A program made the position numbers and the translations under genes. From NCBI RefSeq assembly GCF_963921235.1, contig NC_086107.1, positions 108,626,001 through 108,690,000 on the forward strand: a DNA stretch of 64,000 nt. Reading direction: 5' to 3'. This document shows positions 815-63,368 of the stretch, piece by piece (position 1 is the first letter of the stretch; each line of letters starts with the position of its first letter). A model generated the notes under the pieces. The model ran no database searches and was not told where the DNA came from. It worked only from the letters and a program-made list of their open reading frames with translations. Source of the DNA: Mobula hypostoma (lineage: Eukaryota).

Positions 815-1670
815 GTCCCATTCCCATTCCAACACGTCGGTTCACGGTCTCCTCTTGTGCCAAGATGAAGCCACCCCCGGGTTGGAGGAGCAACACCTTA
901 TTATCCATCTGGGTAGCCTCCAACCCGATGCCATAAATATCGATTTCTCCTTTGAGTAAAAAGAATTCCCTCCCCCCTCCCCTCTTCTATTCCCCATTCT
1001 GAGAATCTTATCTCTTTTCACCTGCCTATCACCTTCCCCTGGATCCCCTCCTCATTCCCTTTCCCTTATGATCCACTGCCCCCCTCCTATCATATTCTTT
1101 CTTCTTTCCTACTCACCTGGCTTCACCCATCACCTGTCTTCCTTCTCCTGCGCGTCCCCCCCCCCCCGCCACACCTTTTTATTCTGGCCTTTCCTTTCCA
1201 GTCCTGAAAAAGTGTCTCAGGCTGAAATGTCAACTGTTTATTCATTTCCATAGATGCTGCCTGACCTGCTGAGCAATGTTCCCTCTGAGGTGTGCGTGTG
1301 CGCACCTTTTGCTACTAGCGCACAAAGGAACTTAAGCTCCGCACAAAAGGTTGTCAGCCTCTACCTCGTTGGCACGTTGAGTATACTTCACGATCGTACA
1401 CAATCACATTTCCTGTTCCAGTCTCTGATGCGGACGGTGTTGACAGCGTGGAGTTTGTGATGATTTGTCTGCAGATTTTTAGAACCGGCTTACTTATACT
1501 GCTTTTATAAGAAATGATTCAGAGCGCACATGTTGTTACTGGGCAAAAAAATTGCACAGCACAAGATTTTTGTGCACACTGGTCATTACAAATTAGAGGG
1601 AACATTGCTGCTGAGTTTTTCCAGCATTTTGTGGGTGTTGCTCTGGTTTTCCAGCATATGCAGAATTTCT
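815..1670 (+). mobile_element. Degenerate Penelope-like element 3' part (GIY-YIG end, pyrimidine-rich UTR, decayed hammerhead, tail), split by a hAT MITE
   Basis: ttggaggagcaacacctt..ctgggtagcctccaacc is homologous to 3603-3650; decayed ribozyme at 1199-1236; the tail resumes after 1607. Confidence 0.8.
1274..1607. mobile_element. hAT-type MITE
   Basis: Terminal inverted repeats caatgttccctct / agagggaacattg; perfect 8-bp TSD ctgctgag at 1266-1273 and 1608-1615. Confidence 0.9.
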
Positions 1671-2765: not shown

Positions 2766-3410
2766 AACACACATCAAAGTTGCTGGTGAACGCAGCAGGT
2801 CAGGCAGCATCTCCAGGAAGAGGTACAGTCGATGTTTCAGGCGGAGACCCTTCGTCAGGACTAACTGAAGGAAGAGCTAGTAAGAGATTTAAAAGTGTGA
2901 GGGGGAGGGGGAGATGCAAAATGATAGGAGAAGACAGGAGGGGGAGGGATGGAGCCAAGAGCTGGACAGGTGATTGGCAAAAGGGATATGAGAGGATCAT
3001 GGGACAGGAGGCCCAGGGAGAAGGAAAAGGGGGAGGGTGGGAAAAACCCAGAGGATGGGCAAGGGGTATAGTCAGAGGAACAGAGGGAGAAAAAGGAGAG
3101 TGAGAGAAAGAATGTGTGTATATAAATAACGGATGGGGTACGAGAGGGAGGTGGGGCATTAGCGGAAGTTAGAGAAGTCAATGTTCATGCCATCAGGTTG
3201 GAGGCTACCCAGACGGAATATAAGGTGTTGTTCCTCCAACCTGAGTGTGACTTCATCTTTACAGTAGAGGAGGCCGTGGATAGACATGTCAGAATGGGAA
3301 TGGGATGTGGAATTAAAATGTGTGGCCACTGGGAGATCCTGCTTTCTCTGGCGGACAGAGCATAGGTGTTCAGCAAAACGATCTCCCAGTCTGTGTCGGG
3401 TCTCGCCAAT
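2766..3410 (-). mobile_element. Penelope-like element, inverted arm (GIY-YIG C-terminus + 3' UTR, no tail)
   Basis: Part of ORF 3159..3524(-): IGETRHRLGDRFAEH...RLEEQHLIFRLGSLQPDGMN; 645-bp inverted copy of 3434-4078. Confidence 0.92.
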
Positions 3411-4123
3411 GCTCCCGATGTGGCTTTCTATATATTGGCGAGACCTGACGCAGACTGGGAGATCGTTTTGCTGAACACCTATGCTCTGTCTGCCAGAAAA
3501 AGCAGGATCTCCCAGTGGCCACACACTTTAATTTCGCATCCCATTCCCATTCTGACATGTCTATCCACGGCCTCCTCTACTGTAAAGATGAAGCCACACT
3601 CAGGTTGGAGGAACAACACCTTATATTCCGTCTGGGTAGCCTCCAACCTGATGGCATGAACATTGACTTCTCTAACTTCCGCTAATGCCCCACCTCCCCC
3701 TCGTACCCCATCCGTTATTTATATACACACATTCTTTCTCTCACTCTCCTTTTTCTCCCTCTGTTCCTCTGACTATACCCCTTGCCCATCCTCTGGGTTT
3801 TTCCCACCCTCCCCCTTTTCCTTCTCCCTGGGCCTCCTGTCCCATGATCCTCTCGTATCCCTTTTGCCAATCACCTGTCCAGCTCTTGGCTCCATCCCTC
3901 CCCCTCCTGTCTTCTCCTATCATTTTGGATCTCCCCCTCCCCCTCACACTTTTAAATCTCTTACTAGCTCTTCTTTCAGTTAGTCCTGACGAAGGGTCTC
4001 GGCCTGAAACATCGACTGTATCTCTTCCTGGAGATGCTGCCTGGCCTGCTGCGTTCACCAGCACCTTTGATGTGTGTTGCTTGAACTTCCAGCATCTGCA
4101 GAATTCCTCGTGTTTGCGTTTTT
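3410..4123 (+). mobile_element. Penelope-like element 3' end (GIY-YIG remnant, UTR, hammerhead, tail)
   Basis: Translates CSRCGFLYIGET*RRLGDRFAEH...PDGMNIDFSNFR* (3410-3685), containing the YIG motif and one premature stop. Confidence 0.92.
3981..4018 (+). ncRNA. Minimal hammerhead ribozyme, stem III mutated (GAAACAUC)
   Basis: tagtc-CTGACGA-agggtctcggcct-GAAA-catc-gactg; the mirror copy at 2826-2863(-) carries the same G>A change. Confidence 0.7.
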
Positions 4124-6030: not shown

Positions 6031-7004
6031 GCCAAAGGTTCCCTAGCTGGGGTTCACGGACCACTTGGTTAATGGTAAGCCTCCATGGCTTGGGAATCCT
6101 TGAGAGAGTTTCAATACTGTGTATCTGTTGTTCTTGAGCCTCGTCTATCATCGGCAGTTAAAATGACTCACGTTCCTGTAATATATTACCCATCCCTTCC
6201 AGAATGCCTGAAATGCTGCCCAGCCAATGAAGAAGTTTAAGAATGGTTATTGATGTGAATGGGAAATGCGGCACGCATCATGGGCAAGATTTATTAATGA
6301 TGTAATGACCCGATAACACATATTGGAAATTGGCTGAGAGTTGGCCCAGGAGGCTGGGATGAGCTCTTCTTTAAAATAGTGTCATAAGTTGTCTAATGAG
6401 TGAATGATGCCTTACTTTAGTGTCCTATCCAAAGGACAGCACGTCCTACAAGACAACACTCTCTCAGTACTGCACTGGAGGAACAGCGATGAGCAGGAAT
6501 TTCTTTAGCAAGAGGATGGAAATGATTACCACAGACGGCTGTGGGGACCTATTCAATGGGGACATTTAAAGTGGAGGTTAATAGGTTAGGGGAAGAAGGC
6601 AGGAGAATGGGGTTGAGAGGGTAATTAATCAGTCATGATCAAATGGTAAGCAGACTCAATGGGCTGAATGGCCTGATTCTGCTCCTGAGTCCTATGGTCT
6701 TATAGGGGTGCCAGGCTGGACTTGTGTGCTCAGGTCTCTGTAGTGGGACTCATGTTCAATTTAGAGACACAAGAGAGACAGCAAATGCTGGAACCTGGGG
6801 CAGAGAATAAACTGCTACAAGAACACAGAGTGTCAGGAAGCATCAGTGAGGGAGACGGAACTGGCAACATTTCAGCTCAAGACCCTTCATCAAGACTGAA
6901 ATATCATCAAGACTGTCCACTCCCTCCATAGATGCTATCTGGCCCACCGAGTTCTTGTTGTTTTTTCTCCCCCCCTATTTCAATTTAATAGTCAAGAGGA
7001 AATC

Positions 7005-7196
7005 AGCAGATCAGGCAGCATCTACAGAGAGGAATGCTTCAGCCCGAGATCCTTCATGAAGTCCTGATGAAGGGCCTCAGCCTGAAGAATTGACTGATTA
7101 TTTGACTCCGTAGATGCTGCCTGACCTGCTGAGTTCCTTCAGCACTCTGTGTATGTTCCTCAAGATTTCCAGCATCTGCAGAATCGCTTGTGTTTA
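7005..7196. mobile_element. Old PLE 3' module in hairpin arrangement
   Basis: An inverted partial arm is joined to gtcctgatgaagggcctcagcctgaag..gatgctgcctgacctgctgagttcc..ccagcatctgcag. Confidence 0.7.
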
Positions 7197-8641: not shown

Positions 8642-8772
8642 ACACATATCAAAGTTGCTGGTGAACGCAGCAGGCCAGGCAGCATCTCCTGGAAGAGGTA
8701 CAGTCGACGTTTCGGGCTAAGACCCTTTACGTGTATTGCTTGAATTTCCAGCATCTACAGAATTCTTCGTGT
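8642..8772. mobile_element. Mini PLE hairpin insertion
   Basis: Inverted arm (to 8727) plus direct tail; TSD tttcgttYggctgta at 8627-8641 and 8773-8787. Confidence 0.8.
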
Positions 8773-13770: not shown

Positions 13771-13919
13771 ATTTGCTGAGTATGCCCGCAGGAAAATGAA
13801 TCTCAGGGTTGTATGTGGAAACATATATGTAATCTGATAATAAAATTTACTTTGAACTTTGAAAACTAGAGTGGCAACAGTGACCTGCTTTCTTGAACCA
13901 ACCTGATCCATGTGAAGAT

Positions 13920-20659: not shown

Positions 20660-23384
20660 TATAGTTTACATTTCTGTTTGCTTTGATTAAAAAAATAAGA
20701 TAATATACAAAAAAGTCAGAATTAGAATGTCCAACACACACAAAATGCTGGAGAAACTCAGCAGGTCAGGTAGCATGCACGAAGGGGAATAAACAGTCAA
20801 TCTTTCAGGTTGAGACACTTCATCTGAAGTGGAATGAGAAGATTTTTTATTATCAATGACAAGTTGCCAAGGTCTGGAACGAGCTGCCTGAAATGGTTGT
20901 TGGAGCAGATTTATTAGCTGGGGGTGGGTAAGGGTTATTCAGGGAGGGAGAGTTACTGGGCTGTGGGCAAGAAGGTAAGGATTGGTATGCTGTTGTCAAA
21001 CAGAAGGAATGATAGATTCACAAACTCTGGTAATATTGTGCTCTGGCTTCCTCACACATCCAAATGACACAAGGTTGGGGAGCTTAACTGGCCACTGTAA
21101 ATCGCTCCTTGTTTGTGGGTGAATGGAGGAATGTGGGAGTGGGGAGATAAGGGGAATTGGATCAGTGTAAGTGGGTGAGCACTTGGTGGACCAAAGGCTT
21201 TGATCCATGCTCAGTCACTCAATGGCCTCAAGACGATTGAGGAACTTGCACCCCATTGTCCTGCACCGATATTCATCCCTTTACCAACCAAGCATAGGGT
21301 TTTTAGTCATCACTGATGTTTGTGGGATCTTGCTGTGCACGCGATGGCCGCTGGCGTTCCTGCCACATTGACCAGGCTCCAAGACATGCTCTATTGGTAG
21401 AGAAACTCTCTTGGATGACCTGAGCTTGCATTAGGTTCTACAGAATGCAGCTCTGCCTTTCTTCGGGAGGTGTGGGGGGTGGGGTGGTGGAGTCCAGGTC
21501 CGTGATTTCACTTCCAGTGACGGATGGGCTCGGACTTGGTTTAGCTACGGGGGAAGAGGTATCAAGCACGGTCTGGCATCCACCGGCATAATGCGGAGAT
21601 GAACTGCACTTACAGGAAGGGGAGGCAAGTAGGGTAAAGGCAGAGAGACAGAGAGAGCAGAGAATGTGTTAAGACTTTAAGGAGGTTGGTGAACTGAAGT
21701 TATTCATGTGTTCTTGAAGAAGACCCAAAAATGGCTTCATAAGTGGGACAACAAACACAAGAAAATCAGGCAGGAGGCCATTCGGCCCCTCAAACCTGCC
21801 CTGTCATTCAATGCCGATCTACCCCAGGCCTCAGCTTTACCCCTGTTGGGTTCAGTCCTGGTCAGTTATAAAAGCAGGGATCAGTATTCCGGTTCGGGTC
21901 AGATTAGAGTGGTCTGCCTCTCTGTATAGTAAATATTTCTACCATTTATTGGGACCTATCAGCGACATGGTAATAGAAACTATATGGGGAACCTACAGAG
22001 AGCAGGTGTGCGACCACGGCGGCCAGGGATTCTGATCGTGTTGGGAATCAAAAATATTCCACGACTACCAGTTTGAGTTGGGTTGGATTTTAATTTCTAA
22101 GACCTTTGCATCACACTGCCTCACTGACTAGTGCATGATACTCTATGCAGAAAAGATATATTGTGTTTTTAGGTGACCTGTGGTCTGAAATCTAAATTAT
22201 GGGTAATTAAGAAACAGAGATCTGGGATGACAGGACGGAAGATGTTGGCAGGTGGCTAGTGAGTAAAATTTGTGCCTCATAAACAATCAGCACAGTTGTT
22301 AATCTACTGGAATGAAAGCTGTTAAGGACATCTTCAAGAACTCATGTCTCAAAAGGTGACATCCATCATTAACATCTGGAACATGTTCTCTTTGGGTTAC
22401 CACCATCAGGGACGAGGTACAGTGACAGAAGACTCATACTCAAGGTTTTAGGAACATGTTCTCCTCCACCATCAGATTTATGAATGGTCCATGAACCTAT
22501 GAACACTATCTTATTATTTGCTTTTTGCATTATTATTTTTGTAACATATTGTAAAGTCAGTGATTCAGTAGTTCTATTTAATGTCACAGAATGTATACAG
22601 TATACAACCTGAAATTCTTACTCTTCACAGACATTCACGAAACATAGAGAAAAGAACCCAAAGAATGAATGACAGAAAAATATTAGAACCCCAAAAGCAC
22701 CCTCCCTCCCCTCCCGCACACAAGCAGCAGCAAAGCATCAACACCCACTTCCTCTCCCCCCCAAATGTTCCAGCAGAAAGCATCAACCCCCCCCCCACCA
22801 CCATTTAAACAACAGCAAGCCCCAGAGACCATGATCTATAGACCATCAGAAACTCTGCTGTCCATCCTAACACCTTGACATCTCAACCGGCTCTCTCTCT
22901 CTTTCGCTAACGAAGGGGAGAAAAATATCGCTCCTGCCACAGTGGGGGGGGGGGGGCAACTGTTCACTGTTTGTTTCGGTGTTACAGTCTGTAGTCGCTT
23001 ATTTCAAGTTCCCCCAACTCGAGAATCAGCAAACTCTCTCCCACCATAGAAAGAGGGAGAGAGAGTGATTGCTCAAGTGCAGAGGCCTCCAGCATCCTCG
23101 AATGCTCTCTCGATGTTCCAATCTCTCACGATGCTTCAGTCAGTGACACCAACAAGGAATCGCGTCGTCTGCAGGGCCACACAAGGCCGCACGCCATAGG
23201 CGCACGACTTTGGGCCTATTTATGTCCTGCACTGTACTACCGCTACAAAGCTACATATTTCACAAATATGTCAGTGGTAATAAACCTGAACCTAATTCTG
23301 AACCGGAATTACGGCTAAAATAAGTTCATACCCTACCAGGACAAATGGGAAATTAAATTCAACTACAATTACAAAGTAATTTTC

Positions 23385-24365
23385 TTCTCCTCACCTGGCT
23401 ATCAACTCCCCCGGTGTTCTCCTCCTTCCCTTTCGCCCATGGTTGACTCTTCTCCTGTCAGATTCCTTCATCTTCAGCCCTTTACCTTTTCCACCAATCA
23501 CCTCTCAGCTATCTTGTGCGATTATGATGGGGACAGACCAGCTCTGCGGCCTGAAGTTAATACATGACACAGCACTGGACTGAACTGAGCTAAACTGAAT
23601 ACTTTCATTGACCGCGTGGGTTGGAGTTGTATATTCTGAGTTTTTCGCTAATTTTCTTTTCGCTATTTGCACGATTTGTTTTTTTTTGCCCCATTGGGGG
23701 TTCAATGTTTTTCTTTGAATGGGTTCCATGGTTCTGGCCCAAAATGTCAACTGTACTTTTTTCAATAGAAGCTGCCTGGCCTGCTGAGTTCCTCCAGCAT
23801 TTTGTGTGTGTTGCTCGGATTTCTAACGTCTGCAGATTTTCTCTTGTTTGTGATTGGACACTCTGAAGTCTCTTCCAGGGATGCCTACCCTGAAGAAGTT
23901 TAAATCTTCCCTTTGGAAGGGTCTCAGCCCGAAACGTTAACTGTACTCTTTTCCATAGATGCTGCCTGGCCTGCTGAGTTCCTCCAGCAGTTTGTGTGAC
24001 TTGCTTGGGTTCCATGGTTTTCGTTTTTTTTGGGGCTGTCTGTGAGAAGACGAATCTCAGGGTTGTATACTGCATACAGACTTGAGAATAAACGTATTTT
24101 GAATCTTCGAATCTTTGAAGCTTCATACTTCATACCCTCCCACACTCACCTGGTTTCACCTATCACCTTCCAGTTTGTTCTCCTTCCCCTCCCCCCAGCT
24201 TCTTATTCTGACTTCTTCCCCCTTCCTCTCTGTCCTGATGAAGGGTCTTAGCCTGAAGTGTCAACTGTTTATGCTTTTCCATAGATGCCGTCTGGCCTGC
24301 TGCGTTCCTCCAGCATTTTGCAAGTGCTACTCTGGATTTTCAGCATCTGCAGAATCCCTTGTGCT
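23385..24365 (+). mobile_element. Nested cluster: old PLE 3' part > LINE-derived repeat (about 23516-24120) > tandem PLE mini-insert (23734-24005)
   Basis: The PLE UTR is interrupted and resumes near 24120; the inner insert has a 14-bp TSD tgggttccatggtt at 23720-23733 and 24006-24019. Confidence 0.75.
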
Positions 24366-24889
24366 TAGACAAGTTTACTTTTTAATTCTAAGGAAAAGTT
24401 AATGTGAAATGTGTGTGCCAGATTCACATAACATCCAGCCCATTTCACAATGTGCTTTAGGGTAAGAAATCACCCATGTATGGCCCTGATATGACGTCAA
24501 ACCTACTGACGTGTTCGATTCTTCAGTAGTGGGAAAAGTACAGTATGTACTCATTAGATCAGACAGTATCTTCAGGGAGAGAAAGAGACCTGAAACAATA
24601 ACTGTGCCTCTCTCTCCATCAGTGCTCTCTCCATAAATATTGGATGCCCTCAGCATTGACGAACAGAGAAATACAGTTAATGTTTTGGCTCTCCTTCTCT
24701 CTCCTCAGATGCTGCCTGACCTGCTGAGTATTGGTGGAATTTTCCATTTTAGTTCGATTGTAATTTTTACAGTTTTCCTTTACACTTCTCTCTGTATCTG
24801 TTTCAGCTCAGGAGAGTTGTGACTGGTAAATAAATATTAACATCTGCAATACCTGAACGAATAAGTAGATTTATGTTTTTATACACGGG

Positions 24890-25189: not shown

Positions 25190-25430
25190 TATGGATGGTA
25201 TACAAGACTACGAAGGGCATCGATAGAGTAAACGGCCAGAATCTGTATCACATAGTCTGGGGAGCCTAGCATAGGTTAAAAGTGAAAGGGAGGATATTTA
25301 AAGGAGTTCTGAGTGGCAAATCTTTCACACGAAGAGCTGTTTGCCAGATGAGGTAGGAACAGAAACAACTGAGGCGTCTAGATAGGTCCTTGAATGGGCA
25401 GAGCTTAGAGGGATATGGAATTAATTCAGA
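25190..25430 (+). mobile_element. Degenerate CR1 3' fragment leading into the satellite
   Basis: gtatacaagactacgaagggcatcgatagagt..ctagatagg..agagggatatgg. Confidence 0.7.
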
Positions 25431-36867: not shown

Positions 36868-37373
36868 TATAAAATTTAATTTGCCAATTCAGACATCCAA
36901 TTATTAATGGTCTCTCTCGTTCCTACACTGCAAATAAATCACCAGGCTACCATACCTTACAGTAAAGTGCTGCTTCCTGATTTTCCTCCTAAATCTAACT
37001 TAACTATTGTCCCTCCCCCCCCTCCACTCCGTGTTCTGGACTCCCCTGTCATGTTCCCTGCATGCGCACCCCATTTTTTTTAAATGTCTGCATCACCAGA
37101 GCAGATCATCACTCAATCTTCCATACTAAATCCAAGCTGAGACTGCGATTTTTACTGCTGTCTTTATACGAGGGGTGATCGATAAGTTTGTGGCTTAAGG
37201 TAGAAGGAGTCAATTTTAGAAAACCTAGCACATTTATTTTTCAACGTGGTCCCTTCCTACATTTACACACTTAGTCCAGCGGTCATGGAGCATACGGATC
37301 CCTTCTTTGTAGAAGTGGTCCACAGCAGGGGTGATTGATAAGTGTGTGGCCTAAGGTAGAAGGAGATGAGTTA

Positions 37374-37829
37374 ACAAACAACAGGAATTCTGCAGATGCT
37401 GGAAATTCAAGCAACACACATCAAAGTTGTTGGTGAACGCAGCAGGCCAGGCAGCATCTCTAGGAAGAGGTACAGTCGACGTTTCAGGCCGAGACCCTTC
37501 ATCAGGACTAACTGAAGGAAGAGTTAGTAAGAGATTTGAAAGTGGGAGGGGGAGGGGGAGATCCAAAATGATAGGAGAAGACGGTGGGGGGGGGGGGATG
37601 GAGCCAAGAGCTGGACAGGTGATTGGCAAAAGGGATATGAGAGGATCATGGGACAGGAGGCCCAGGGAGAAGGAAAAGGGGGAGGGGGGAACCCAGAGGA
37701 TGGGCAAGGGGTATAGTGAGAGGGACAGCGGGAGAAAAAGGAGAGTGAGAGAAAGAATGTGTGTATAAAAATAAATAACGGATGGGGTACGAGGTGGAGG
37801 TGGGGCATTAGCGGAAGTTAGAGAAAGTT
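37374..37829 (-). mobile_element. 5'-truncated Penelope-like insertion
   Basis: Close match to 3667-4115; perfect 13-bp TSD aggagatgagtta at 37361-37373 and 37830-37842. Confidence 0.92.
37473..37510 (-). ncRNA. Minimal type I hammerhead ribozyme (intact core)
   Basis: Minus strand UAGUC-CUGAUGA-AGGGUCUCGGCCU-GAAA-CGUC-GACUG: both core boxes, stem I, palindromic ACGU stem III, GUC site. Confidence 0.82.
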
Positions 37830-38887
37830 AGGAGATGAGTTATACAGCTCTTGTTACATGCACGTGCAGTTCAACTCTTTGGGTGAAAATGCAGTAGGTT
37901 TGAAGTTAATAAGTCATCTCCTTCTACTGTGGGCCACGAACTTATCAATCACCCCTGCTGTGGACCGCTTCTGGAGGTCCAAGACACCAACTTCTACAAA
38001 GAAGGGATCTGTTTGTTCCATGACCGCTGGACTAAGTGTGTAAATGTAGGAAAAATAAATGTGCTAGGTTTTCTAAAATTGACTGCTTCTACCTTAGGCC
38101 GCGAACTTATCAATCACCTACGTATGCAGCTCAGATCTTCCTTCTCCAGGCAAGTAAGTGTAGAGGTAATTCGGAAGGCTACTCTGCACGATGTATGGGG
38201 ACTGATGAATAACCTTAGCTGCTCGAAAGTGGAACACACGCAGGATTACTAAAGGGCATTTATAAATGCCTGTATAGTTTCACATTTAACTTTGAGGATT
38301 TGTGCTTCTTCAGGTGAACTGGGTTCTATAATCACAGGAAGATGAACAATGCTCTTGAAAAGAAGAAAGGTTCTGGGAACGCTGATTGACGCAAGAATTG
38401 TTTTGTTGAGGGAACAGAAAGTGGGCTGGTGAAAGTGAAGATTTCAAGATTGTGCAGGGAATCGGCAAACAGACATTCTAGGGGATGCTCACGGAAGGGA
38501 ATGGTTTCAATGCAGGGCCAGGCAGACGAGATGTCGACTTTTTTTCTTTATTCCGAATGTAACATCTACCAACGACAAAATGTCCCCGAGGCACCTTCCA
38601 GGAACTCTAAGCGAACAAGAGGAGAGGCCAAGTCACACGAGAAGATGGCGGGGACAACTGGCCCGAGGCCCGGACAGAAGGAAGACAAGAAGAAGCATCC
38701 GGAAGAAAGTGGAGAGGTTTGTGGGGGAGAAATGCCAGAGTTCACGGTCTGGACAGCTGAGACAGAGAGACCAGAATGACCAGAGCATAGAGTCCTCAAA
38801 GGGTGATGGGGCTGGAGTAGAATGTGGGATGAACTGGAGCAACGAGACCAAGGAGGAGTTTGCATCATTTAATATCACCACTGGAAT

Positions 38888-41800
38888 AGACCATAAGACC
38901 ATAAGACAAAGGAGCAGAAGTAGGCCATTCGGCCCATCGAGTCTGCTCCGCCATTTTATCATGAGCTGATCCATTTTATCCTATTTAGTCCCACTGCCCC
39001 GTCTTCTCACCATAACCTTTAATGCCCTGGCTACTCAGATACTTATCAATCTCTGCCTTAAAGACACCCAATGACTTGGCCTCCACTGCTGCCCGTGGCA
39101 ACAAATTCCATAGATTCACCACCCTCTGACTGAAAAAATTTTTTCGCATTTCTGTTCTGAATGGGCGTCCTTCAATCCTGAAGTCATGCCCTCTCGTACT
39201 AGACTCCCCCATCATGGGAAACAACTTTGCCACATCCACTCTGTACATGCCTTTTAACATTCAAAATGTTTCTATGAGGTCTCCCCTCATTCTTCTAAAC
39301 TCCAAGGAATACAGTCCAAGAGCGGACAAACGTTCCTCATATGTTAACCCTCTCATTCCCGGAATCATTCTAGTGAATCTTCTCTGTACCCTCTCCAACG
39401 TCAGCACATCCTTTCTTAAATAAGGAGACCAAAACTGCCCACAGTACTCCAAGTGAGGTCTCACCAGCGCCTTATAGAGCCTCAACATCACATCCCTGCT
39501 CCTATACTCTATTCCTCTAGAAATGAATGCCAACATTGCATTCGCCTTCTTCACTACCGACTCAACCTGGAGGTTAACTTTAAGGGAATCCTGTACGAGG
39601 ACTCCCAAGTCCCGTTGCATCTCAGAACTTTGAATTCTTTCCCCATTTAAATAATAGTCTGCCCGTTTATTTTTTCTGCCAAAGTGCATAACCATACACT
39701 TTCCAACATTGTACTTCATTTGCCACTTCTCTGCCCATTCTTCCAATCTATCCAAGTCTCTCTGCAGACTCTCCGTTTCCTCAGCACTACCGGCCCCGCC
39801 ACTTACCTTCGTATCATCAGCAAACTTAGTCACAAAGCCCTCTATTCCATAATCCAAATCGTTGATGTACAATGTAAAAAGAAGCGGCCCCAACACTGAT
39901 CCCTGTGGAACACCACTGGTAACTGGCAGCCAACCAGAATAGGATCCCTTTATTCCCACTCTCTGTTTCCTGCCAATCAGCCAACACTCTATCCACACAT
40001 GTAACTTTCCTGTAATTCCACGGGCTCTTACCTTGTTTAGCAGCCTCATGTGTGGCACCTTGTCAAAGGCCTTCTGAAAATCCAAATATACAACATCCAG
40101 TGCATCTTCCTTGTCTAGCCTACTGGTAATTTCCTCAAAAAATTGTAATAGGTTTGTCAGGCAGGATTTTCCTTTAAGGAATCCATGCTGAGTTCTGCCT
40201 ATCTTGTCATCTGCCTCCAGGTACTTCATCCTTGACAATCGACCCCAACATCTTCCCAACCACCGATGTCAAGCTAACAGGTCTATAATTTCCTTTTTGC
40301 TTCCTTGCCCCCTTCTTAAATAGCGGAGTGACATTTGCAATCTTCCAGTCCTCCGGAACCATGCCAGAATCTATCGACTTTTGAAAGATCATTGCTAATG
40401 CCTCCGCAATCTCCACAGCTACTTCCTTCAGAACATGAGGGTGCATTCCATCTGGTCCAGGAGATTTATCGACCTTTAGCCTATTCAGCTTCCTGAGTAC
40501 TTTTTCTGTCGTAATTGTGACTGCGCACACTTCTCTTCCCTGCCACCCTTGAGTGTCCGGTATCCTGATGTCTTCCTCAGTGAAGACTGATGCAAAATAC
40601 TTGTTCAGTTCCTCTGCCATCTCCTCATCTCCCATTACAATTTCTCCAGTATCATTTTCTATCGGTCCTATATCTACTCTCACCTGTCTTTTACTCTTTA
40701 TATACTTGAAAAAGCTTTTAGTATCCTCTTCGATATTATTTGCTAGTTTCCTTTCATAGTTAATCTTTTCTCTCTTAATGACCTTCTTGGTTTCCTTTTG
40801 TAAGGTTTTAAAGACTTCCCAATCCTCTGTCTTCCCACTAATTTTTGCTTCCTTGTATGCCCTCTCCTTAGCTTTAACTTTGGCTTTGACTTCTCTTGTC
40901 AACCACGGTTGCATCCTTTTTCCACTCGAAAATTTCTTCTTTTTTGGAATATACCTGTCTTGCACATTCCTCATTTCTCGCATAAACTCCAGCCACTGCT
41001 GCTCTGCCGTCTTTCCCGCCAGTGTCTCTTTCCAGTCAACTTTGGCCAGTTCCTCTCTCATGCCACTGTAGTTTCCTTTACTCCACTGAAACACCGACAC
41101 ATCAGATTTCGGCTTCTCTTTTTCTAATTTCACAGTGAACTCAATCATGTTATAATCACTGCCTCCTAAGGGTTCCTTCACCTCAATCTCTCCAATCACC
41201 TCCGGTTCATTACACAATACCCAATCCAGTACAGCCGATCCCCTAGTGGGCTCAACAACAAGCCGTTCTAAAAAGCCATCTCGCAGACATTCTACAAATT
41301 CTCTCTCTTGAGATCCAGTGCCAACCTGATTTTTCCAATCTACTCGCATGTTAAAATCCCCCACAATTATCATAACACTGCCCTTTTGACAAGCCTTTTC
41401 TATTTCCAGTTGTAATTTGTAGTCCACATCCCTGCAGCTGTTTGGAGGCCTATAAATAACTGCCATCAGGGTCCTTTTACCCCTGTTATTCCTTAGCTCA
41501 TCCCATAAAGATTCTGCACCTTCTGATCCTATATCACCTCTTTCTAATGATTTAATATCATTTCTTACCAATAAAGCCACGTCTCCCCCTCTGCCTACCT
41601 TCCTATCGTTCCGATACACCGTGTATCCTTGGACGTTCAGCTCCCAGAGACATGCATCCTTTAACCAGGTCTCAGTGATAGCCACAAGATCATACCTGCC
41701 AATCTGTAGCTGTACAACAAGATCATCCACCTTATTTCTCATGCTGCGTGCATTTAAGTACAACACCTTAAGACCAGTATGATACTTTTTGCTTCGATTT

Positions 41801-41940
41801 CACTGCAACTTTATTGCACTGCAACTCATCCCAATGGCTACACATTTGCCCCATCACCTGCCTGTCTTTCCTGACATCTTTACTGCTCACCATCTTAGAT
41901 TTATTTCTGTTTTCCCCTTCCTCCGCTCTATCATTCCGGG
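38888..41940 (-). mobile_element. CR1 LINE with near-complete ORF2
   Basis: Short tandem tail (gtcttatg on the minus strand) at 38888-38907; EN and RT ORFs; truncated near 41940. Confidence 0.95.
38985..41766 (-). pseudogene. CR1 ORF2 (APE endonuclease + reverse transcriptase), 1 frameshift and 1 stop
   Basis: YLNARS, ITETW, YRPP, GDFN, KSPGPDG, YRPVSLTS, YLDFQKAFDKVPH, GVPQGSVLGP, KFADD; frameshift near 40225 and stop at 39261-39263. Confidence 0.95.
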
Positions 41941-41944
41941 AGGT

Positions 41945-42292
41945 GACGTACTGGACTGGAGTTCAATTGCATTCTTTCAGTCTTATGTTTTTATACTCTG
42001 TGTTTTCGCCTGTTCTTTCTTGTTGCAATTTGCATGATTTGTTTGTTTCTTTGTGCATGAGGGGGTTGATGTTCTTCTTGTTGTATGCACAATTTATTTT
42101 TGCACACGAGAGTTTGATGCTCTTGTTGCCATTTGAGCAATTTGTTTCTTTTGCGCATGGGCGTTCGACATTTCTCTTTGAACGTTCTCCACGGTTTTCT
42201 GTGTTTCATGGCTCTCTGGAGAAGAGAAATCTCAGAGTTGTATACTGCATACATGCTTTGATAATAAATGTGCCTTTGAACCTTGAACCTTG
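41945..42292 (+). mobile_element. LINE-type 3' UTR fragment with (tgaacct)n tail
   Basis: aatctcagagttgtatactgcatac..aataaa..tttgaaccttgaaccttga; relatives near 4440, 24050 and 33350. Confidence 0.6.
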
Positions 42293-42732
42293 ACTGGTTG
42301 AGCAGGGAATATAAATGAATTGGAGAGTGAGAGTGAAAGAGAGAGAAAGTGAGAAAGAGAGGGAGAGAAAGAGAGAGAAATTAGTTTCACTTATTGCGTG
42401 GATATTGAAACATGAGGTGAAATGCTTCACATGCGACGGCGATGTGCTGAGGACAGGCCACAAGCATTGCCATGCTTATGATGCAAACATAGCGTACCCA
42501 CGACTTACTAACCCAACTTGTATGCTTTTGGAATGTGGGAAGAAACCAGAAGACCTGGGGGAAACCCAAATGGTCATGGGTGGAACGTACAATCTCCTTA
42601 CCGACAGTGGTGGGAATTGAACCCCAATCTTACAACTGGCATGCTGTAAAACATTACTCTACCGTACGGGCCAGAACCTAAAACCCGAAAGGATAGGTGT
42701 CCGAGTTGGAAAGGAGCAGATGGAAGACGTCA

Positions 42733-42938
42733 ACACAAAATAATCTGCAGATGCTGGGGTCAAAGCAACACTCACAACATGCTGGAGGAACTCAGCAGGT
42801 CGGGCAGCATCCGTGGAAAAGATCGGTCGACGTTTCGGGCCAGAACCCTTCATCAGGACCCGGTTCCGGCCCGAAACGTCGACCGATCTTTTCCACGGAT
42901 GCTGCCCGACCTGCTGAGTTCCTCCAGCGTGTTGTGAG
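42733..42938. mobile_element. 206-bp PLE hairpin insertion
   Basis: 38-nt tail plus 77-bp arms (42771-42847 / 42862-42938); perfect 15-bp TSD agatggaagacgtca at 42718-42732 and 42939-42953. Confidence 0.92.
42825..42860 (-). ncRNA. Minimal type I hammerhead ribozyme (intact core, variant stem I)
   Basis: Minus strand GGUC-CUGAUGA-A-GGGU-UCUG-GCCC-GAAA-CGUC-GACC. Confidence 0.82.
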
Positions 42939-43019
42939 AGATGGAAGACGTCACACTGGGTTTTTCAAATGAAAGGAAGTGGGAGGATTAGAGGTTCTGT
43001 AGCGGTGATTCACCTTCCT

Positions 43020-44015
43020 GGAGGTTAACGTAATGCTACTACGGCATCAGCGACCCAGGTTCAATTCCCGCCACTCTCTGTAAGGAGATTGTGCTTACTC
43101 CCCATGTTCGTGGGTGTTTCATCTGGGTGCTCTGGTTTTCTCCCGCATCCCAAACATGTACGGGTTAGGGTGAGTGACTGGTGGGTATACTATGCTAGCA
43201 ATGGAAGTGTGGCAACACTTATTTAGATTAGATTATGAGGACACTCAATTCTCGTTTATTATCATTTAGAAATGCATGCATTAAAAAGTGACACAATGTT
43301 CCTCCAGAAAGATATCACAAGAAAAAAAAAGGACAAACCAAGACTAAAACTGACAAAACCACATAATTATAACATATAGTTACAACAGTGCAAAGCAATA
43401 CCGTAATTTGATAAAGAGCAGACCATGGGCATAGTTAAAAAAAAGTCTCAAAGTCCTGATAGCCTCATCATCTCACGCAGACGGTAGAAGGGAGAAACTC
43501 TCCCTGCCATGAACCTCCAAGCGCAGCAAACTTGCCGATGCAGCACCATTGGAAGCACCCGACCGCAGCGGACTCTGAGTCCGTCCGAAAACTTCGAGCC
43601 TCCGACCAGCCCCTCCGACACAGCCTCTCCGAGCACCATCCTCTGCCGAGCGCTTCGACCCCACCCCGGCCGCCGAGCAACAAGCAAAGCCGAGGACTCG
43701 GGGCCTTCCCCTCCGGAGATTCTGGATCACACAGTAGCAGCAGCAGCGAAGCAGGCATTTCAGAAGTTTCACCAGATGTTCCTCCGTGCTCTCATGTCCG
43801 TCTCCATCAAATCAGGATTGTGCACGGCACCTTACTTGACAAATAACAGACGTCACCACCAGAGTGGCCGCTGCGATCTACGTCGCGCCGCCATCTTCTC
43901 CTCCCGCTATGGGCTGCCCTTAGCACATCCTCAGATTGTGTTAATCGTCGGCACAAGCAACACATTTCACTGTATGTTTTGATGTACAGGTGTGACAATT
44001 AAAGCAAATCTCTCA
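43020..44015 (+). mobile_element. V-SINE hosting retroposon copy 3
   Basis: B box ggttcaattccc, V core, tail resumes after 43905. Confidence 0.65.
43223..43904 (-). mobile_element. Noncoding retroposon copy 3
   Basis: gccgccatctt at 43887-43897; (ttaga)n tail at 43223. Confidence 0.85.
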
Positions 44016-44342
44016 TCTGTAACGAGGAAGGATTGAGAAGACTGAGCCTATACTCTCCGTGGGTGAGAAAATTGAGAGTTGATCCCATTGAGACACACAA
44101 GATTCTGCAAGGGCTTCGCAGGGTCAATGTTGAGAGGATGTTTACTCCTGAAGGGAATCATGAGAGAATGGGACTAGATTCAAGGATAAGTGGTTGGTCA
44201 CTTTAAGTACCTGCTTCAACATTTAATTGGACAGCCAGATGACCTTTAACCTCAATGTGGATAGGAAAGGTTAAGAGGGATAACAGCTGAAGGTGGGTAA
44301 AAGAGGCTAGCTTAAGTGGATATGAAGGGCCTGTTTCCAAAT

Positions 44343-44920
44343 GACCATAAGAATTAGGGCATTCGGTCCGTCAAATCTGCTATAGCATTCCATCATGGCT
44401 GATTTATTTTCCCTCACAACCCGCTTCTCCTATCTTCTCCCTGTAACCTTTCACACTCTTACTAATCAAGAACTTATCAACTTCCACTTCAAATATACTC
44501 AGTGACCTGACCTCCACAGCCATCTGTGGCAATGACTTCCACAGATTCGCCACTCTCTGGCTAAAGAAATTGCTGCTCATCTCTGTACTGAAGGGACATC
44601 CTCTTATTCTGAGGCTGTGCCCTCTGGACCTGAACTTTCCCACTATCGGTAGCATCCACTCCACATCCACGCTCTCTAGGTCTTTCAATATTCAGTAGGT
44701 TTCAGTGAGATTCCGACCCCCCTGGTTTTTCTAAACTCCAGTGAGCATGGGCCCAGAGTCATCGAACATGTTAACCCTTTCATTCCTGGGATCATTGTCG
44801 TAAACCTTCTCTGGATCCTTTCCAATGCCAGCACATCCATTCTTAGATATGGGGCTCAAAACAGCTCACAATACTCCAAATGTGGTCTGACCAATGTCTT
44901 ATGAAGCCTCAGCATTACCT
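44343..44920 (-). mobile_element. CR1 LINE 3' fragment
   Basis: ORF 44404..44688 SRGHSLRIRG..FFSQRVANLW. Confidence 0.88.
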
Positions 44921-45164
44921 ACTTCTATGCAGTGAGAGACTATAACTCTCTCACTTTCCTGTATTAATCCCGTTTCCCTGATTCCCTTAGCAATAAGGAA
45001 TCTATCAGTATATGAACTATCTTCTGTGCAAAACCTGAACACACTCAGTTAATGATTTCTGCAGCCCTCTTGGGAAGATGTATTCAAAGATTCCCCATTC
45101 TGTGGCTTCTCATAACAGTCTTGAATTGCAGACCCCTTCTTTAAACTTATTAAGTTTAATTCCA

Positions 45165-45745
45165 TGTTATTTCCACTACATGATGGTCCATGACCTCCTC
45201 TATTGCCATGAAGAGGCCACTCTCGGGTGAGAGGAGCTTCACCTCATATTCCGTCTGAGTAGTCTCCGACCTGATGACGTGAGCATCGCTTTCTCTAACT
45301 TCTGGTAATTCCTCTCCGCTCCCTCTGTTTTTTCATTCCCCATTCTGGTTCTCCTCTTACTTATTCTCTTCTCCTCACTTGTCTATCACTTTTCTCTGAT
45401 GCCCCCCCTTCCTTCCCTTTCTCCCAAGGTCCACTGTCCTCTCCTATCAGATTCCTTTTTCTTCAGTCTTTACCCTTTTCCACCTAACACCTCCCAGCTT
45501 CTCACTTCATCTCCCCTCCCTCACCCATCTACCTTCCCCCCACCTGGTCTCTCATCCATCACCTGCTAGTTTGTACTCCTCCTCCATCCCACACAGCACC
45601 CCCCCCCATCTTCTTATTCTGGCTTCTTCCCCACTTCCTTTCCAGTCCTGATGACGAGTCTCAGCCAGAAACGTCAGCTCTTCATTCCTTTCCAGAGATG
45701 CTGCCTGACCTGCTGAGTTCCTCCGGCATTTTGTGTGTGTTGCTG
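45165..45745 (+). mobile_element. Degenerate PLE 3' part
   Basis: GIY-YIG end, pyrimidine-rich UTR, decayed hammerhead at about 45643-45680. Confidence 0.8.
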
Positions 45746-45926
45746 TTATTTTACAACTGTGTCCCCTGATTCAGGCACCTCAGCCAGAGGCAGTATCAAC
45801 TCCACTTCACTCTATTAGATTATCTCTAGATTCCAACAGGATAATATCTCATTCTTCTAGGCTCAGGAGAATACTGCCCCGGCTTAATCTTTTCTCTCAG
45901 GGCAAACACGCCACTTGACGATATTT

Positions 45927-46070
45927 AAAATGCAAACAACAGGGTTTCTGCAGATGCTGGAAATTCAAGCAACACACATCACGAAGGGTCTCGGCCTGAA
46001 ACGTCGACCGTACCTCTTCCTAGAGATGCTGCCTGGCCTGCTGTGTTCAACAGCAACTCTGATGTGTGTT
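45927..46070. mobile_element. Mini PLE hairpin insertion
   Basis: Tail on the minus strand, then an inverted arm ending gatgtgtgtt; TSD acttgacRatattt at 45913-45926 and 46071-46084. Confidence 0.85.
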
Positions 46071-47289
46071 ACTTGACAATATTTTCTTCCTTCGGTAGTT
46101 TGCATCTGTATAAAACAGAGTGATGGATATGAGAACCAGGTACAAGTCCATGGGATTTACGCTAAAATTAGAAATTAATCGTCAGCATTTAAAGAACTTC
46201 AAGGCTGACTTTGCAGTCTTTGGATCTTAAGGCTGAGACAAGAGTGAGACTAGAGCTCCCAAAGCTGGTCTTAATGATGCTCTTTGGTCAGATCCACTGA
46301 TTGACAACACAGAGAACTGCATTGGTGAGGATCCCACCCACCACAGTTATTCTCTCTTCTCCCCTTTCCCATGGGGCAGAACACACAACAGCCTGGAAGT
46401 TTGTACCACCAGGCTCAAGGACAACTTCTGCCCTGCTGTAATAAGACTATTAAATGGTTCCAGAGTTCGATAGGGATGGACTCTTGACCTCACGATCTAT
46501 CTCGTTGTGATCTTCATTCTCTATCTGCTCTGAACTTCCTCTGTAGCTGTTACACCTTATTGTGCACTGTCATTGTGTTACCTTGTTCTACCTCAATTCA
46601 CTGTGTAATGAGTTTCTGTCTCGCTGTGATCTTGAACTACGTTGTTTATCTGCTGCGCACTCACTCTGTAGAATGTATAGTTTATTCTGCGTTGTTTTTG
46701 TTTTACCTTGTTCTACCTCAGCGCACTGTGTAATGATCTGATCTGTGTGAACAGTATGCAAGACAAGCCTTTCACTGTGTCTCTGCACATGTGACAATAA
46801 GAAGCCAACACCAACACTGCCTCGATTTACTGCTTCTTATTCCACAAAACAATAGAATTTAAATCACGAAATAATCATCACTTCACACACAGTCTGGAAT
46901 TTGCTGACCTGTTTCAGCAGATGCCAGATGGTCTTCTAAGGAGCTCCTAGTGAGCTGTCAACTTAATCCAGTCCATGATTTTCTTTCTCTGTCACTACGT
47001 TGAAATCAGCACTCATTACACCTGCATCCCAGGTATTTGAAACTGTGGAATTCACCCTTTCCCTACTGCCACCTACGGCACTAGCTAGTCTGAACATCTT
47101 GGTTCTTCAGGAAGATTCAATGGTACCAACTCAACAGCAAACCCCACCCCACCCCCCAAATCCTCCCCTCCGCACAAGCCCCCGGCACCCTCTCGACTTC
47201 CCGTGCTCACTAACCAATGATGCTGGATTGTGGCCAGACGATCGGAAAATTGTGCCTCATCGTCTTCAAGTTCCTCCAAAGTCTCACCC

Positions 47290-48799: not shown

Positions 48800-49057
48800 T
48801 AAACAGAACAGATTCTGCAGATGCTGGAAATCTTTAGCAGCACACACACACACACAAAATGCTGGAGGAACTTAGCATGTCAGGCAGCGTCTATGGAAAT
48901 GAGTACAGTCGACCTTTTAGGCCAAGACCCTTCATCAGGACTGGAGGGAAAAAGGTGAGGAGTCAGGGTAAGGAGGTGGGGGGGGGGGGGGAACGTCAAC
49001 TCTTTATTCCCCTCCACAGATGCTCCAGACTTGCTGAGCATTTTATGTGTGTTGCTC
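48800..49057. mobile_element. Old PLE hairpin insertion
   Basis: Minus-strand tail and decayed hammerhead (about 48906-48943), followed by an inverted arm. Confidence 0.75.
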
Positions 49058-50430: not shown

Positions 50431-50960
50431 CAAGAAAAAAATCTGCTGGTGCTGGAAATCCAAACAACAAACACGAAATGCTGGAGGAACTCAGCAGGCC
50501 AGGCAGCATCTATGGAAACAGTCGACGTTTCGGGCCGAGACCCTTCATCTCATTCCACACTCTCATGACCCTCTGAATGAAGAAGTTTTCTCTCATGTTC
50601 CCTTTAAACTTTTCACCTTTCACCCTTAATCCATGATTTCTAGTTTTAGTCTCACCCAACCTCAGTGGAAAAAGTCTGTTTGTATTTAGTCTTTCTATAC
50701 CCCTCATAATTTTGTATATCTCTGTGAAATCTCCCCTCAATCTTCAACATTCCGAGGAATAAAGTCCTATTCAATCTTCCCTTATAACTCAGCTCTTCCA
50801 ATCCTGGCAGCATCCTTGTAATTTTTCTCTATACTCTTTCAATCTTATTTACGTCTTTCCTTCGTAAAGTGGAAGTGTTGTAGCCTGAAACGTCAGCTGT
50901 TTACTCTTTTCCATGGATGCTGTCTGGCCTGCTGAGTTCCTCCAGCGTTTTGCCTGTGTT
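50431..50960. mobile_element. PLE tail / internal CR1 fragment / inverted PLE arm composite
   Basis: PLE(-) 50431-50548, CR1(-) about 50549-50848, PLE(+) about 50881-50960. Confidence 0.7.
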
Positions 50961-54519: not shown

Positions 54520-54897
54520 GAACTTTTAATGGGATAATGTAGAGAGGCTTCATGCTGTACTTCACTCATCCTCTGTAGAGAGAGCATTTAATGGGACAGT
54601 GTAAAGGGGCTTTTCTCTGTATTTAACCCCTCCTGTGCACAGTGTTTAATGGGACAGGGTAAAGGGGTTTCACTCTGTATTTAACCCAACCTGTGCACAG
54701 AGAGTGTTTAATAAGACAGTGTAAAGAGGCTTTTCTCTGTATTTAACCCATCCTGTGCACAGTGTGTGTTTAATGGGAAAGTGTGAAGGGGCTTTTCTCT
54801 GTATTAAACCCACCCTGTGTACAGAGAATGTTTAATAAGACAGTGTAAAGGGGCTTTTGTCTGTATTTAACCCATCCTGTGCACAGACAGTGTTTAG
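54520..54897. repeat. 58-62-bp minisatellite (about 6 units)
   Basis: tttaat(gg/aa)gacagtgtaaag.ggctttt.tctgtatttaacccatcctgtgcacag recurs at 54587, 54645, 54707, 54769 and 54831. Confidence 0.9.
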
Positions 54898-57540: not shown

Positions 57541-58205
57541 AAACACGAGGAAGTCTGCAGATGCTGGAAATCCAAAACAAACACACAAAAGGAACTCAAA
57601 AGGTCAGGCAGCACTTGTGGAAAAGAATAAACAGCTGACGTCTTGGGACAAGACCCTTCAGCAGGATTGAAGAGGAAAGATGCTGGAATAAAAAGGTGGG
57701 GGGGATGGGGAAAGAGGATTAGCTAGAAGGCGATAGGTAGATAAAATTAGGTTGGAAAGGTCAAGGGCTAGAGAAGAAGGAATCTGATTGGGGAGGAGAG
57801 TGGACTATAGGAGAAAGAGGAGGAGGAGAGGACCCAGGGAGAAGTGATAGGCAGGTGAGAAGAGGTGAGAGGCCAAAGTGGGGAACAGAAGAAGAGGGGG
57901 AGGAAAAGATTGTTTTACCGGAAGGAAAAATCAATATTCATATGGGAGATAGGAAGAAGGACTAGTTAGAAGGTGTCTTTTTTTATATATAGGTGATCAG
58001 TGAAAAGCCAGGCCCTTTACCTTTCCCACCCACCTAGCTTCACCTATCAACTTCTAGCCATCCTCCTTCCCCTCCCATGACCCCCCACCTTTCTATTCTG
58101 GCACCTGCCCGCTTCCTTCCCAGCCCTGATGAAGTGTCTCGGCCCAGAACGTCGACTGTTTATTCCTCTCCATAGATGCTGCCTGACCTGCTGAGTTCCT
58201 CCGGC

Positions 58206-60219: not shown

Positions 60220-60745
60220 GTACATGGGTCTGGTCCATGGTCTCCTCTACTGCCACGACAAGGTCAAATTCAGGATGGACAAGCAACACCTTGTACTCCA
60301 TCTGGGTAGCCTCCAAACTGATAGCATGAACATCGATTTATCGCACTCCGGTAATTTCTCCTTCCTTCCCCTTCTCCCTTTTACCATCCCCTCTCACCCC
60401 TTCTATTCTCCTCATTTGCCCATCACCTCCTTCTGGTGCCACTGCTCTTGCCCTTTCTCCCATCGCCCATACTCATATCCCGTCAGATTCCTTCTTCTTC
60501 AGTCCCTTACTTCTTCCACCTGTCATCTCCCAGTTTCTTACTTCAACCCCTCCCTCCACCCACCCAATTTCCCCGTCACTTGATCCCCCTATCACCTGCC
60601 AGCTTATACTCCTTCCACTCTCCCTCCCCCTACCACCTCCAACTTTTTTATTCTGGCTTCTTCCCTTTTATTTGTCCTGATGAAAGGTCTTGGCCCAGAA
60701 CTTCTCTTCATTCCCCTCCATAGATCCTGCCTGACCTGTAGCTTT
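60220..60745 (+). mobile_element. Degenerate PLE 3' part
   Basis: VHGLLYCHD..QHLVLHLGSLQTDSMNID; decayed hammerhead near 60675. Confidence 0.82.
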
Positions 60746-62554: not shown

Positions 62555-63368
62555 GGAGGGAGCAGAAGATGGCGGCGCGACGCAGCGCGTGCGGCCGTTC
62601 CGAATGAATATCGATATGTGCAACTAGGGGTGCCGTGAACAATCCGGATTTGATGGGGACAGGCGTGAGAAAGCGCAGAGGAACATCTGGATTAACTTCT
62701 GAAATGCCCGCTTCGCTGCCGCTGCTACTGTGCGATCGAGAATCTCCGGAGACGAAGGCCCCAAATCCTCAGCTTTGCCTATTGCCTGTTGCCGGGGCCG
62801 GGGTCAAAACGCTCGGCAGAGATAGTGCTCAGTGCTCGGCGTTGAATAGGTGGTCGGAGGCTTGGAGTTTTTCGGACGGACTCGGAGTCGGACTGTGGTC
62901 GGATGCGTCCGGGATGCCAACGATAAACCTTGGCGGCGCTGGAGGTTTACCATCTGCATGAGATGATGGGACTTTCGAGAGACTCTGAGACTTTTACTAT
63001 GCCATGAACAACAGGAATTCTGCAGATGCTGGAAATTCAAGCAACACACATCAAAGTTGCTGGTGAACGCAGCAGGCCAGGCAGCATCTATAGGAAGAGG
63101 CGCAGTCGACGTTTCAGGCCGAGACCCTTCGTGAGGACTAACTGAAGGAAGAGTGAGTAAGGGATGCCATGGTCTATTCTTATCAAATTACGGTATTGTT
63201 TTGCACTGTTGTAACTATATGTTATAATTATGTGGTTTTTGTTAGTTTTTAAGTTGGTTTGTCATATGTTTTTGTGATAATCATTCTGGAAAAACATTTT
63301 TATCATTTCTTATTGCATGCATTACTAAATGACAATAAAAGGGGACTGTGTGTCCTCATAATCATAAT
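62555..63368 (+). mobile_element. Noncoding retroposon copy 5, with a PLE insertion at 63007-63163 (minus strand)
   Basis: aagatggcggc at 62566-62576; the PLE is flanked by an 8-bp TSD atgccatg at 62999-63006 and 63164-63171. Confidence 0.87.

Follow-up and report, generated by a model that had tools for sequence, protein, structure and literature searches.

The minus strand of a 64,000-nucleotide stretch of the Mobula hypostoma genome (hereafter the window) holds two short motifs that read as hammerhead ribozymes, which raises the question of what kind of element brought them there and whether they have any activity of their own. We put at roughly three in four the probability that the motif is a minimal type-I hammerhead carried in the pseudo-LTR (pLTR) of canonical Penelope-like retrotransposons (PLEs), that two such motifs may dimerise and cleave in the RNA of a source copy, and that the scattered genomic copies are relics without a role of their own. 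An earlier note on this DNA had already assigned the motif to the minimal type I hammerheads of a PLE 3' module, and it does lie in the 3'/pLTR module next to an ORF for RT and GIY-YIG. The element is of a known kind and is notable only for the scale of its expansion, the copy number being unusually large.

The motif and its copies in the window

Both intact sites read as first described, including the different stem II loops (CUCG and UCUG). The site at 37473-37510(-) is AGUC-CUGAUGA-A-GGGU(CUCG)GCCU-GAA-ACGU-C-GACU, and the site at 42825-42860(-) is GGUC-CUGAUGA-A-GGGU(UCUG)GCCC-GAA-ACGU-C-GACC. The pattern CTGANGA-N(6-30)-GAAACGTC has three exact matches in the window (37478-37505 -, 42829-42856 - and 45648-45675 +) against a shuffle expectation of 0.01, and none of 100 shuffles reached three. 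Half-motifs are also found in excess (12 against 2.2 expected for one half, 11 against 0.26 for the other).

A covariance-model search of the kind that the earlier note had proposed for the whole genome was run on the window with a model (R1) of 44 positions and 9 pairs, for which 27 copies, including 13 window copies, served as seed. Run without filters, R1 gave 27 matches at E<=1, and the 19 at E<=1.7e-5 correspond to 19 of the 20 sites listed before, six of them outside the seed (50516, 7056, 45970, 23903, 20791 and 8698). The twentieth site, at 23736, is a partial copy detected by BLAST only. Both core and stems are kept in only two of the 19 copies. The plus-strand copy at 45648, described before as decayed, retains exact core boxes while its stems I and II are broken. 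The features of the window are collected in Table 1.

Table 1. Hammerhead-bearing PLE fragments and related features in the window
Feature	Position	Strand	Details
Intact hammerhead (minimal type) of family A, the main PLE family	37473..37510	-	Stem I AGUC/GACU(+U.G), CUGAUGA, unpaired A, stem II GGGU-CUCG-GCCU, GAA, ACGU, C17; best R1 match, 69.1 bits
5'-truncated family-A PLE insertion	37380..37825	-	Final ORF codons, ~290 nt 3'UTR, hammerhead, ~100-nt tail; 447-nt BLAST match, 91.7% identity to full-length L021
Intact motif, second PLE family (UUC-type stem II loop)	42825..42860	-	Stem I G at 2.4 derives from inversion junction
Head-to-head inverted pair of hammerhead/tail fragments	42766..42943	.	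82-nt arms, 95% complementary, 14-nt spacer; one arm ends within stem II
Exact core boxes, stems I and II degraded	45640..45683	+	GIY-YIG C-terminus remnant at 45180-45302
Family-A fragment: GIY-YIG C-terminus, 3'UTR, hammerhead 2823-2866, tail	2766..3410	-	Left half of head-to-head pair; ACGU decayed to ACAU
Family-A fragment, right half of head-to-head pair with 2766..3410	3410..4108	+	Hammerhead 3978-4021; ACGU decayed to ACAU
Short young family-A fragment, 96.8% identical	63010..63165	-	Hammerhead 63100-63143; G5 to C
Decayed copy, older PLE family	1196..1239	+	EN C-terminus remnant 807-950
Decayed copy	60669..60712	+	EN C-terminus remnant 60233-60346
Two decayed copies head to head, opposite strands	6858..7099	.	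6858-6901(-) and 7056-7099(+)
Copy with 5' part (stem I and CUGA box) swapped for inverted tail fragment	8698..8738	-	BLAST, R1
Copy with 5' part swapped for inverted tail fragment (45925-45981 -)	45970..46013	+	BLAST, R1
Decayed copy	20791..20834	-	R1, E 9e-7
Three hammerhead/tail modules, direct orientation	23736..24372	+	Partial 23736-23906; hammerheads 23903-23946 and 24227-24270; no regular tandem array
Decayed copy, 2 core changes	48903..48946	-	R1
Copy truncated within CUGA box	50516..50554	-	R1
Decayed copy	57629..57672	-	R1
Decayed copy, 2 core changes	58118..58161	+	R1

The hammerhead families of Rfam (Hammerhead_1, Hammerhead_3, HH9, HH10 and Hammerhead_II) have the same catalytic core as the window motif, but their models give no match, either at the gathering score across the whole window or at E<=10 in 37300-46100. 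This is probably due to the shrinking of helix III to a 4-nt palindrome. Annotators should therefore be cautious, since Rfam leaves these motifs unflagged. The sole Rfam matches, from the 37300-46100 search at E<=10, are of miRNA models to the hairpin at 42791-42918, and both are sub-threshold (mir-1791, 43.4 bits against a gathering score of 75; mir-2007, 30.8 against 100). Head-to-head PLE hairpins of this sort could be mistaken for small-RNA precursors, or could become such precursors.

The carrier element

Full copies elsewhere in the genome have a hammerhead on both sides of one RT and GIY-YIG ORF, at a spacing of 3,514 nt. The unit of the main family (A) consists of the hammerhead, a tail of ~105 nt, a leader of ~640 nt, a single ORF of ~2.7 kb (RT followed by a C-terminal GIY-YIG), a 3'UTR of ~300 nt, and again hammerhead and tail. 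The 3' hammerhead of full copies lies ~300 nt past the stop and ~135 nt ahead of the 3' end of the element, and the conserved tail of ~100 nt after the motif is common to all copies. Locus L021 has this layout in full: a hammerhead at 2250, an open frame at 3022-5859 and a hammerhead at 5764 share one orientation. Its direct repeat (139 nt, 96% identity, 3,514 nt spacing) begins 4 nt ahead of the CUGA box, and its 5' unit, with the hammerhead, borders directly on an inverted tail arm. This layout corresponds to the pLTR-ORF-pLTR structure of canonical PLEs.

The coding capacity was examined in two further loci. In L004 an ORF with a weak GIY-YIG match ends ~290 nt upstream of the hammerhead, and L022 has a similar ORF end (~290-300 nt). 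Queried with the GIY-YIG fragment of L004, the genome (3.48 Gb) gave 178,885 first-look candidates; 150 of these were scored, and their identity to the fragment at the protein level is 87-100%, mostly 95-98%. The 903-aa open frame of L022 matches RVT_1 at residues 442-556 (E 1.4e-4) and GIY-YIG at 806-880 (E 9.8e-4), both under the Pfam curated cut-offs. Among 8,000 candidates scored with this ORF, 942 are homologues at E<=1e-3; precomputed Pfam annotation of the best 120 of these 942 lists PF26215 and PF28514 in nearly all, PF00078 (RVT_1) in most and PF01541 (GIY-YIG) in some. The closest named relative among those scored is an uncharacterised bamboo-shark protein (72% identity).

Partial tandems (pseudo-LTRs), frequent 5' truncation and, at the 5' end, an inverted copy that is itself 5'-truncated are given as typical PLE traits by Craig et al. 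2021 (PMC8557442), and PMC4209133 also describes inverted partners and partial tandems. They are seen here in the direct repeat and inverted arm of L021 and in the fragments and head-to-head pairs of the window. Four family-A 3' fragments were identified in the window by BLAST against L021 and by tblastn with the ORF, and five hammerhead copies sit 250-400 nt downstream of remnants of a GIY-YIG C-terminus. The older families in the window have only the ~135-nt hammerhead-plus-tail module in common. Insertions are usually 5'-truncated, so nearly every fragment retains hammerhead and tail, and this explains the dispersal of the motif. We also considered whether the two intact window copies are the two pLTRs of one PLE; this was rejected, because the ORF between them (39261-41799 -) is that of an unrelated LINE with APE endonuclease and RT.

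Conservation of the hammerhead fold

The core (C3 U4 G5 A6 N7 G8 A9...G12 A13 A14...A15.1/U16.1, H17) is exact in three window copies and in 56,691 genome copies, and its columns are invariant across 16 sequences of distant families. For the latter comparison, 80 metagenome loci encoding relatives at 35-62% amino acid identity were fetched. A generic descriptor detected 18 motifs on the ORF strand of these loci and four on the opposite strand, the latter looking like inverted copies, and none in 20 shuffles. The resulting alignment (A5) shows 96% pairing, which is partly circular, as the descriptor demanded 3 bp per stem; it was set aside and the search was therefore repeated with the core boxes and position alone. 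In this form, 15 of 34 distant loci possess the motif 95-151 nt past the ORF end (controls: 0/34 on the antisense strand and 0/34 inside the ORF). In these 15 loci, picked regardless of stems, 49 of 60 cells are paired in stem I (partner shuffles: mean 27.7, maximum 42) and 58 of 60 in stem II (mean 49.8, maximum 56). Judged by these comparisons, the predicted hammerhead fold is real across distant PLE families, and both stems covary strongly. Within this genome, the stem I covariation claimed earlier does not hold: among 27 copies 84.0% of the cells are paired against 84.2% after shuffling, and the two double-changed pairs observed were reached by 182 of 500 shuffles.

Several details of the motif agree with the minimal hammerheads of PLEs, which have G at 10.1, one unpaired base following A9, a palindrome at 15.2-16.2 and a helix I of 4-5 bp (PMC4209133). 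The core, together with the unpaired A, G10.1 and the palindromic ACGU, is common to the window motif and the distant families. Helix I is open and of 4-5 bp (AGUC/GACU plus U.G in family A). The 4-bp helix II is kept, but its 10.1-11.1 pair is mostly G.U in the main family instead of the usual G-C: position 11.1 is U in 80 of the first 100 family-A copies listed and in 12 of 13 EN-selected copies (both hand counts). The UUC-loop family has C at 11.1, as do 15 of the 16 sequences in the distant-family alignment. The unpaired base A9/10.1 is A in 25 of 27 aligned copies (C in w45640p, G in L016_3088) and in all 16 distant-family sequences. The ACGU palindrome at 15.2-16.2 replaces helix III; 15 of the 16 distant rows have C-G, and one row has the swap to G-C. 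In four metagenome contigs with distant PLE relatives (L039, L048, L071 and L075), the hammerhead on the ORF strand has another close to it on the other strand, an inverted arrangement as in this genome.

Copy number and the stem I variant

The very high genomic copy number foreseen from the window was borne out. The genome has 56,691 exact copies of a 36-nt pattern in which only the 2.4/1.4 pair of stem I may vary; searches with the reversed pattern as control all gave 0. The pair is A-U in 53,365 of them, G.U in 1,730, A.C in 1,499 and G-C in 97. Scaled to the genome, the 19 recognisable window copies would correspond to about one million, an extrapolation from a single window.

The two intact copies differ at this pair, and the readings AGUC/GACU and GGUC/GACC given for them are correct; the compensatory A-U to G-C change seen in this difference did not stand, as the within-genome pair test does not differ from shuffles and the G has another origin. 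The four counts give an odds ratio of ~2. Approximately 73 of the 97 G-C copies are of the UUC-loop type (hand count), the family that includes the 42825 copy and has 1,357 A-U, 997 A.C and 43 G.U exact copies. Ten G-C loci were examined. An inverted arm is present in five of them, and in the other five unrelated sequence extends up to the G, so that in every case the G belongs to an inversion junction or to the flank; none has the 3'UTR of the A.C loci. The G is thus a junction or flank base, as in the 42825 copy, and not an inherited compensatory change. The variant was consequently rejected as a sign of selection in this genome.

The UUC-loop loci of the A.C type belong to a second PLE family, which spread with a mismatch at 2.4/1.4. 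Six such loci were fetched (L113-L118); they have one common 3'UTR, and all six match the PLE ORF at 74-84% amino acid identity to family A. The ORF ends ~270 nt upstream of the hammerhead in five of them, while L113 has an opposite-strand RT segment only. With ~1,000 exact A.C copies in this family, the mismatch in helix I did not block proliferation.

Decay of the copies and their boundaries

Young family-A copies have CUGACGA (N7 = C), and the CUGAUGA of the window is the minority state, judged by the listed copies and by the contig letters at position 37501; the change from C to U at N7 of the window copy is plausibly a CpG transition. In the 19 window copies, the CpG positions differ from the reference state at rates of 31-47%, and 59 of the 68 differences there are transitions. 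At non-CpG positions 6.9% differ in the core and 14.5% in the stems, where the low core value is biased because the copies were found through the core. The CpG-driven pattern at the five CpGs of the motif is ordinary post-insertion decay.

The 5' ends of many copies and the inversion junctions cluster at the CUGANGA box or a few bases from it, between a point 4 nt ahead of the box and stem II, and are neither random nor located at the cleavage site. Such boundaries were observed in the window at 8698, 23903, 42821, 45970 and 50516, and in L003, L005, L021:2246 (oriented) and L023-L032. Among the BLAST pieces, a small sample, no copy starts exactly at the cleavage site. Thousands of contigs assembled from four runs show no joint at that site, which weighs neither for nor against cleavage because contigs do not preserve RNA ends. 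The clustering suggests an RNA 5' end, or a point of RT stopping or switching, at the 5' edge of the motif. Moreover, hammerhead and tail are conserved together between families with 3'UTRs that do not align.

Mechanism and alternative explanations

In the window, the copies are fragments, either inverted or truncated on the 5' side, in which the 3'-terminal hammerhead and tail are retained. By analogy with the lizard PLE studied by Frangieh et al. 2024 (PMC11167929), RT would start internally at the tail end on a longer-than-unit RNA and run back through the hammerhead, so that any insertion, however short, would carry hammerhead and tail. Priming on both target strands, which are both cut and extended in that work, could generate the head-to-head pairs and hairpins. 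Two motifs in the RNA of a source copy may join by their ACGU palindromes into a helix III and cut after GUC. Cleavage by the dimer would probably be weak, and the element's own protein may assist. The scattered genomic copies would then be relics with no role of their own.

It is also conceivable, though in our view unlikely, that the motif is of hammerhead descent and is now non-catalytic, acting as a protein-binding RNA site, a mark for RT initiation or a place of RT stalling or switching, or hitch-hiking with the element, with self-cleavage playing no part. Most main-family copies combine G.U at 10.1-11.1 with C at N7, and GACG can pair with CGUC in an inactive rod; this pairing is, however, lost where N7 is A or U. 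In the minimum-energy fold of the monomer G5-G8 are paired with C15.2-C17, and the fold is no stabler than shuffles (z = -0.16 to +0.42). The position of copy 5' ends and inversion junctions at the 5' half of the motif rather than at the cleavage site, and the joint conservation of hammerhead and tail between families, would fit a signal of this type, but RNAalifold predicts no consensus structure in the tail (16 tails, 0 pairs). The invariant core letters of the distant families, together with helices I and II that vary and remain paired, are the signature of a catalytic fold and argue against the loss of catalysis. We nevertheless keep a small weight on the non-catalytic reading because hammerhead mutants of the lizard PLE are reported to remain capable of insertion in vitro, with no reads ending at the site of cleavage (PMC11167929), and because PMC8557442 notes that PLE clades lacking the hammerhead proliferate well and calls its function in PLEs unclear.

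A more specific version seems doubtful. Here hammerhead and tail, i.e. the 139-nt terminal direct repeat, would act not as a ribozyme but as an R-like terminal redundancy and an RT stop or switch signal, with the RNA of the element starting at the motif's 5' edge. The G.U at 10.1-11.1 and the C at N7 would lock the inactive rod, and this non-cleaving state would have permitted the expansion, one of the largest of a hammerhead-bearing PLE seen in a vertebrate.

The earlier suggestion that some copies may cleave host transcripts is very improbable, whether intact copies would cut pre-mRNAs or lncRNAs that hold two of them close together or would work in trans. Although 56,691 exact copies are available and direct pairs 275-500 nt apart exist (23903/24227 and 45640/45970 in the window), a monomer cannot form helix III, only two of the 19 window copies keep both core and stems, and the decay pattern is neutral. 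Inverted pairs also outnumber direct ones (at least 8 against 2 among the first 100 listed copies, hand count). A SINE, or the 3' end of an APE-type LINE, can practically be dismissed as the source of the motif: many copies are indeed short and SINE-like and an APE and RT ORF does lie between the two intact copies, but these two belong to different families with different flanks, every longer copy examined runs upstream into a GIY-YIG/RT ORF, and the LINE ORF ends ~1.75 kb from the nearer motif.

Comparison with known hammerhead elements

That PLEs carry hammerheads, and that these abound in the genomes of fish, amphibians and reptiles, has been published since 2014 (Cervera & de la Pena 2014, PMC4209133). 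The motifs described there share with ours the CUGANGA...GAA core, the unpaired A9/10.1 base, G10.1, the palindromic 15.2-16.2 positions in place of a real helix III and a helix I of 4-5 bp. Their elements likewise have hammerheads in both repeats flanking an RT and GIY-YIG unit, most motifs are single ones left by truncated elements, dual motifs lie on opposite strands 100-700 bp apart, and vertebrate genomes hold thousands of copies. The present family differs in its helix II (4 bp with two wobbles, against 7-8 bp in Schistosoma) and in having U at 11.1 in most main-family copies. Its 56,691 exact copies far exceed the ~4,000 of coelacanth and ~9,000 of Xenopus, although the search methods differ.

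Poseidon PAc of Anolis carolinensis (Frangieh et al. 2024, PMC11167929) has the same pLTR-ORF-pLTR order, a hammerhead in the pLTR, a 3' tail past the hammerhead where copies end, and use of both target strands. Its hammerhead overlaps the ORF start, whereas here the motif follows the previous stop by ~300 nt and precedes the open frame by ~770 nt.

Retrozyme repeats measure 170-400 nt and each contains a hammerhead. Tandem Repeats Finder detected no tandem array over any motif of the window, and the identity of the copies as non-LTR retrozymes was rejected on this basis. The animal non-LTR retrozymes do carry type-I hammerheads related to those of PLE pLTRs (Cervera & de la Pena 2020, PMC7229834), and a recent preprint records them in the one chondrichthyan genome sampled (Li et al. 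2026, 10.64898/2026.07.22.740005). However, retrozymes are head-to-tail tandem arrays, while the copies here are the 3' ends of truncated autonomous elements.

With tens of thousands of exact copies in a young family (the 150 scored EN matches are mostly ~97% identical to the query protein), this genome offers a natural data set for the role of the ribozyme in PLE spread, the starts of PLE transcripts and the origin of head-to-head insertions.

Neighbouring sequence

Inverted repeats of ~200 nt (37174-37378 and 37910-38118, 89-95% complementary) flank the PLE fragment at 37380-37825, and similar sequence recurs at 8087-8115(+) and 8367-8395(-). The fragment seems to lie inside another palindromic repeat, possibly a DNA-transposon-like one. 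Two LINE-type ORF remnants, at 39261-41799(-) with APE endonuclease and RT and at 11183-13846(-) with RT and zf-RVT, are both unrelated to the hammerhead family. A 3-kb satellite at 25407-28421 is composed of 114 copies of a 27-nt unit with a higher-order period of 131 nt (91-92% matches), and the ORFs across it match no Pfam family. Further tandem repeats are found at 54525-54901 (six copies of 62 nt) and at 59260-59877 (29/114 nt, 21 copies).
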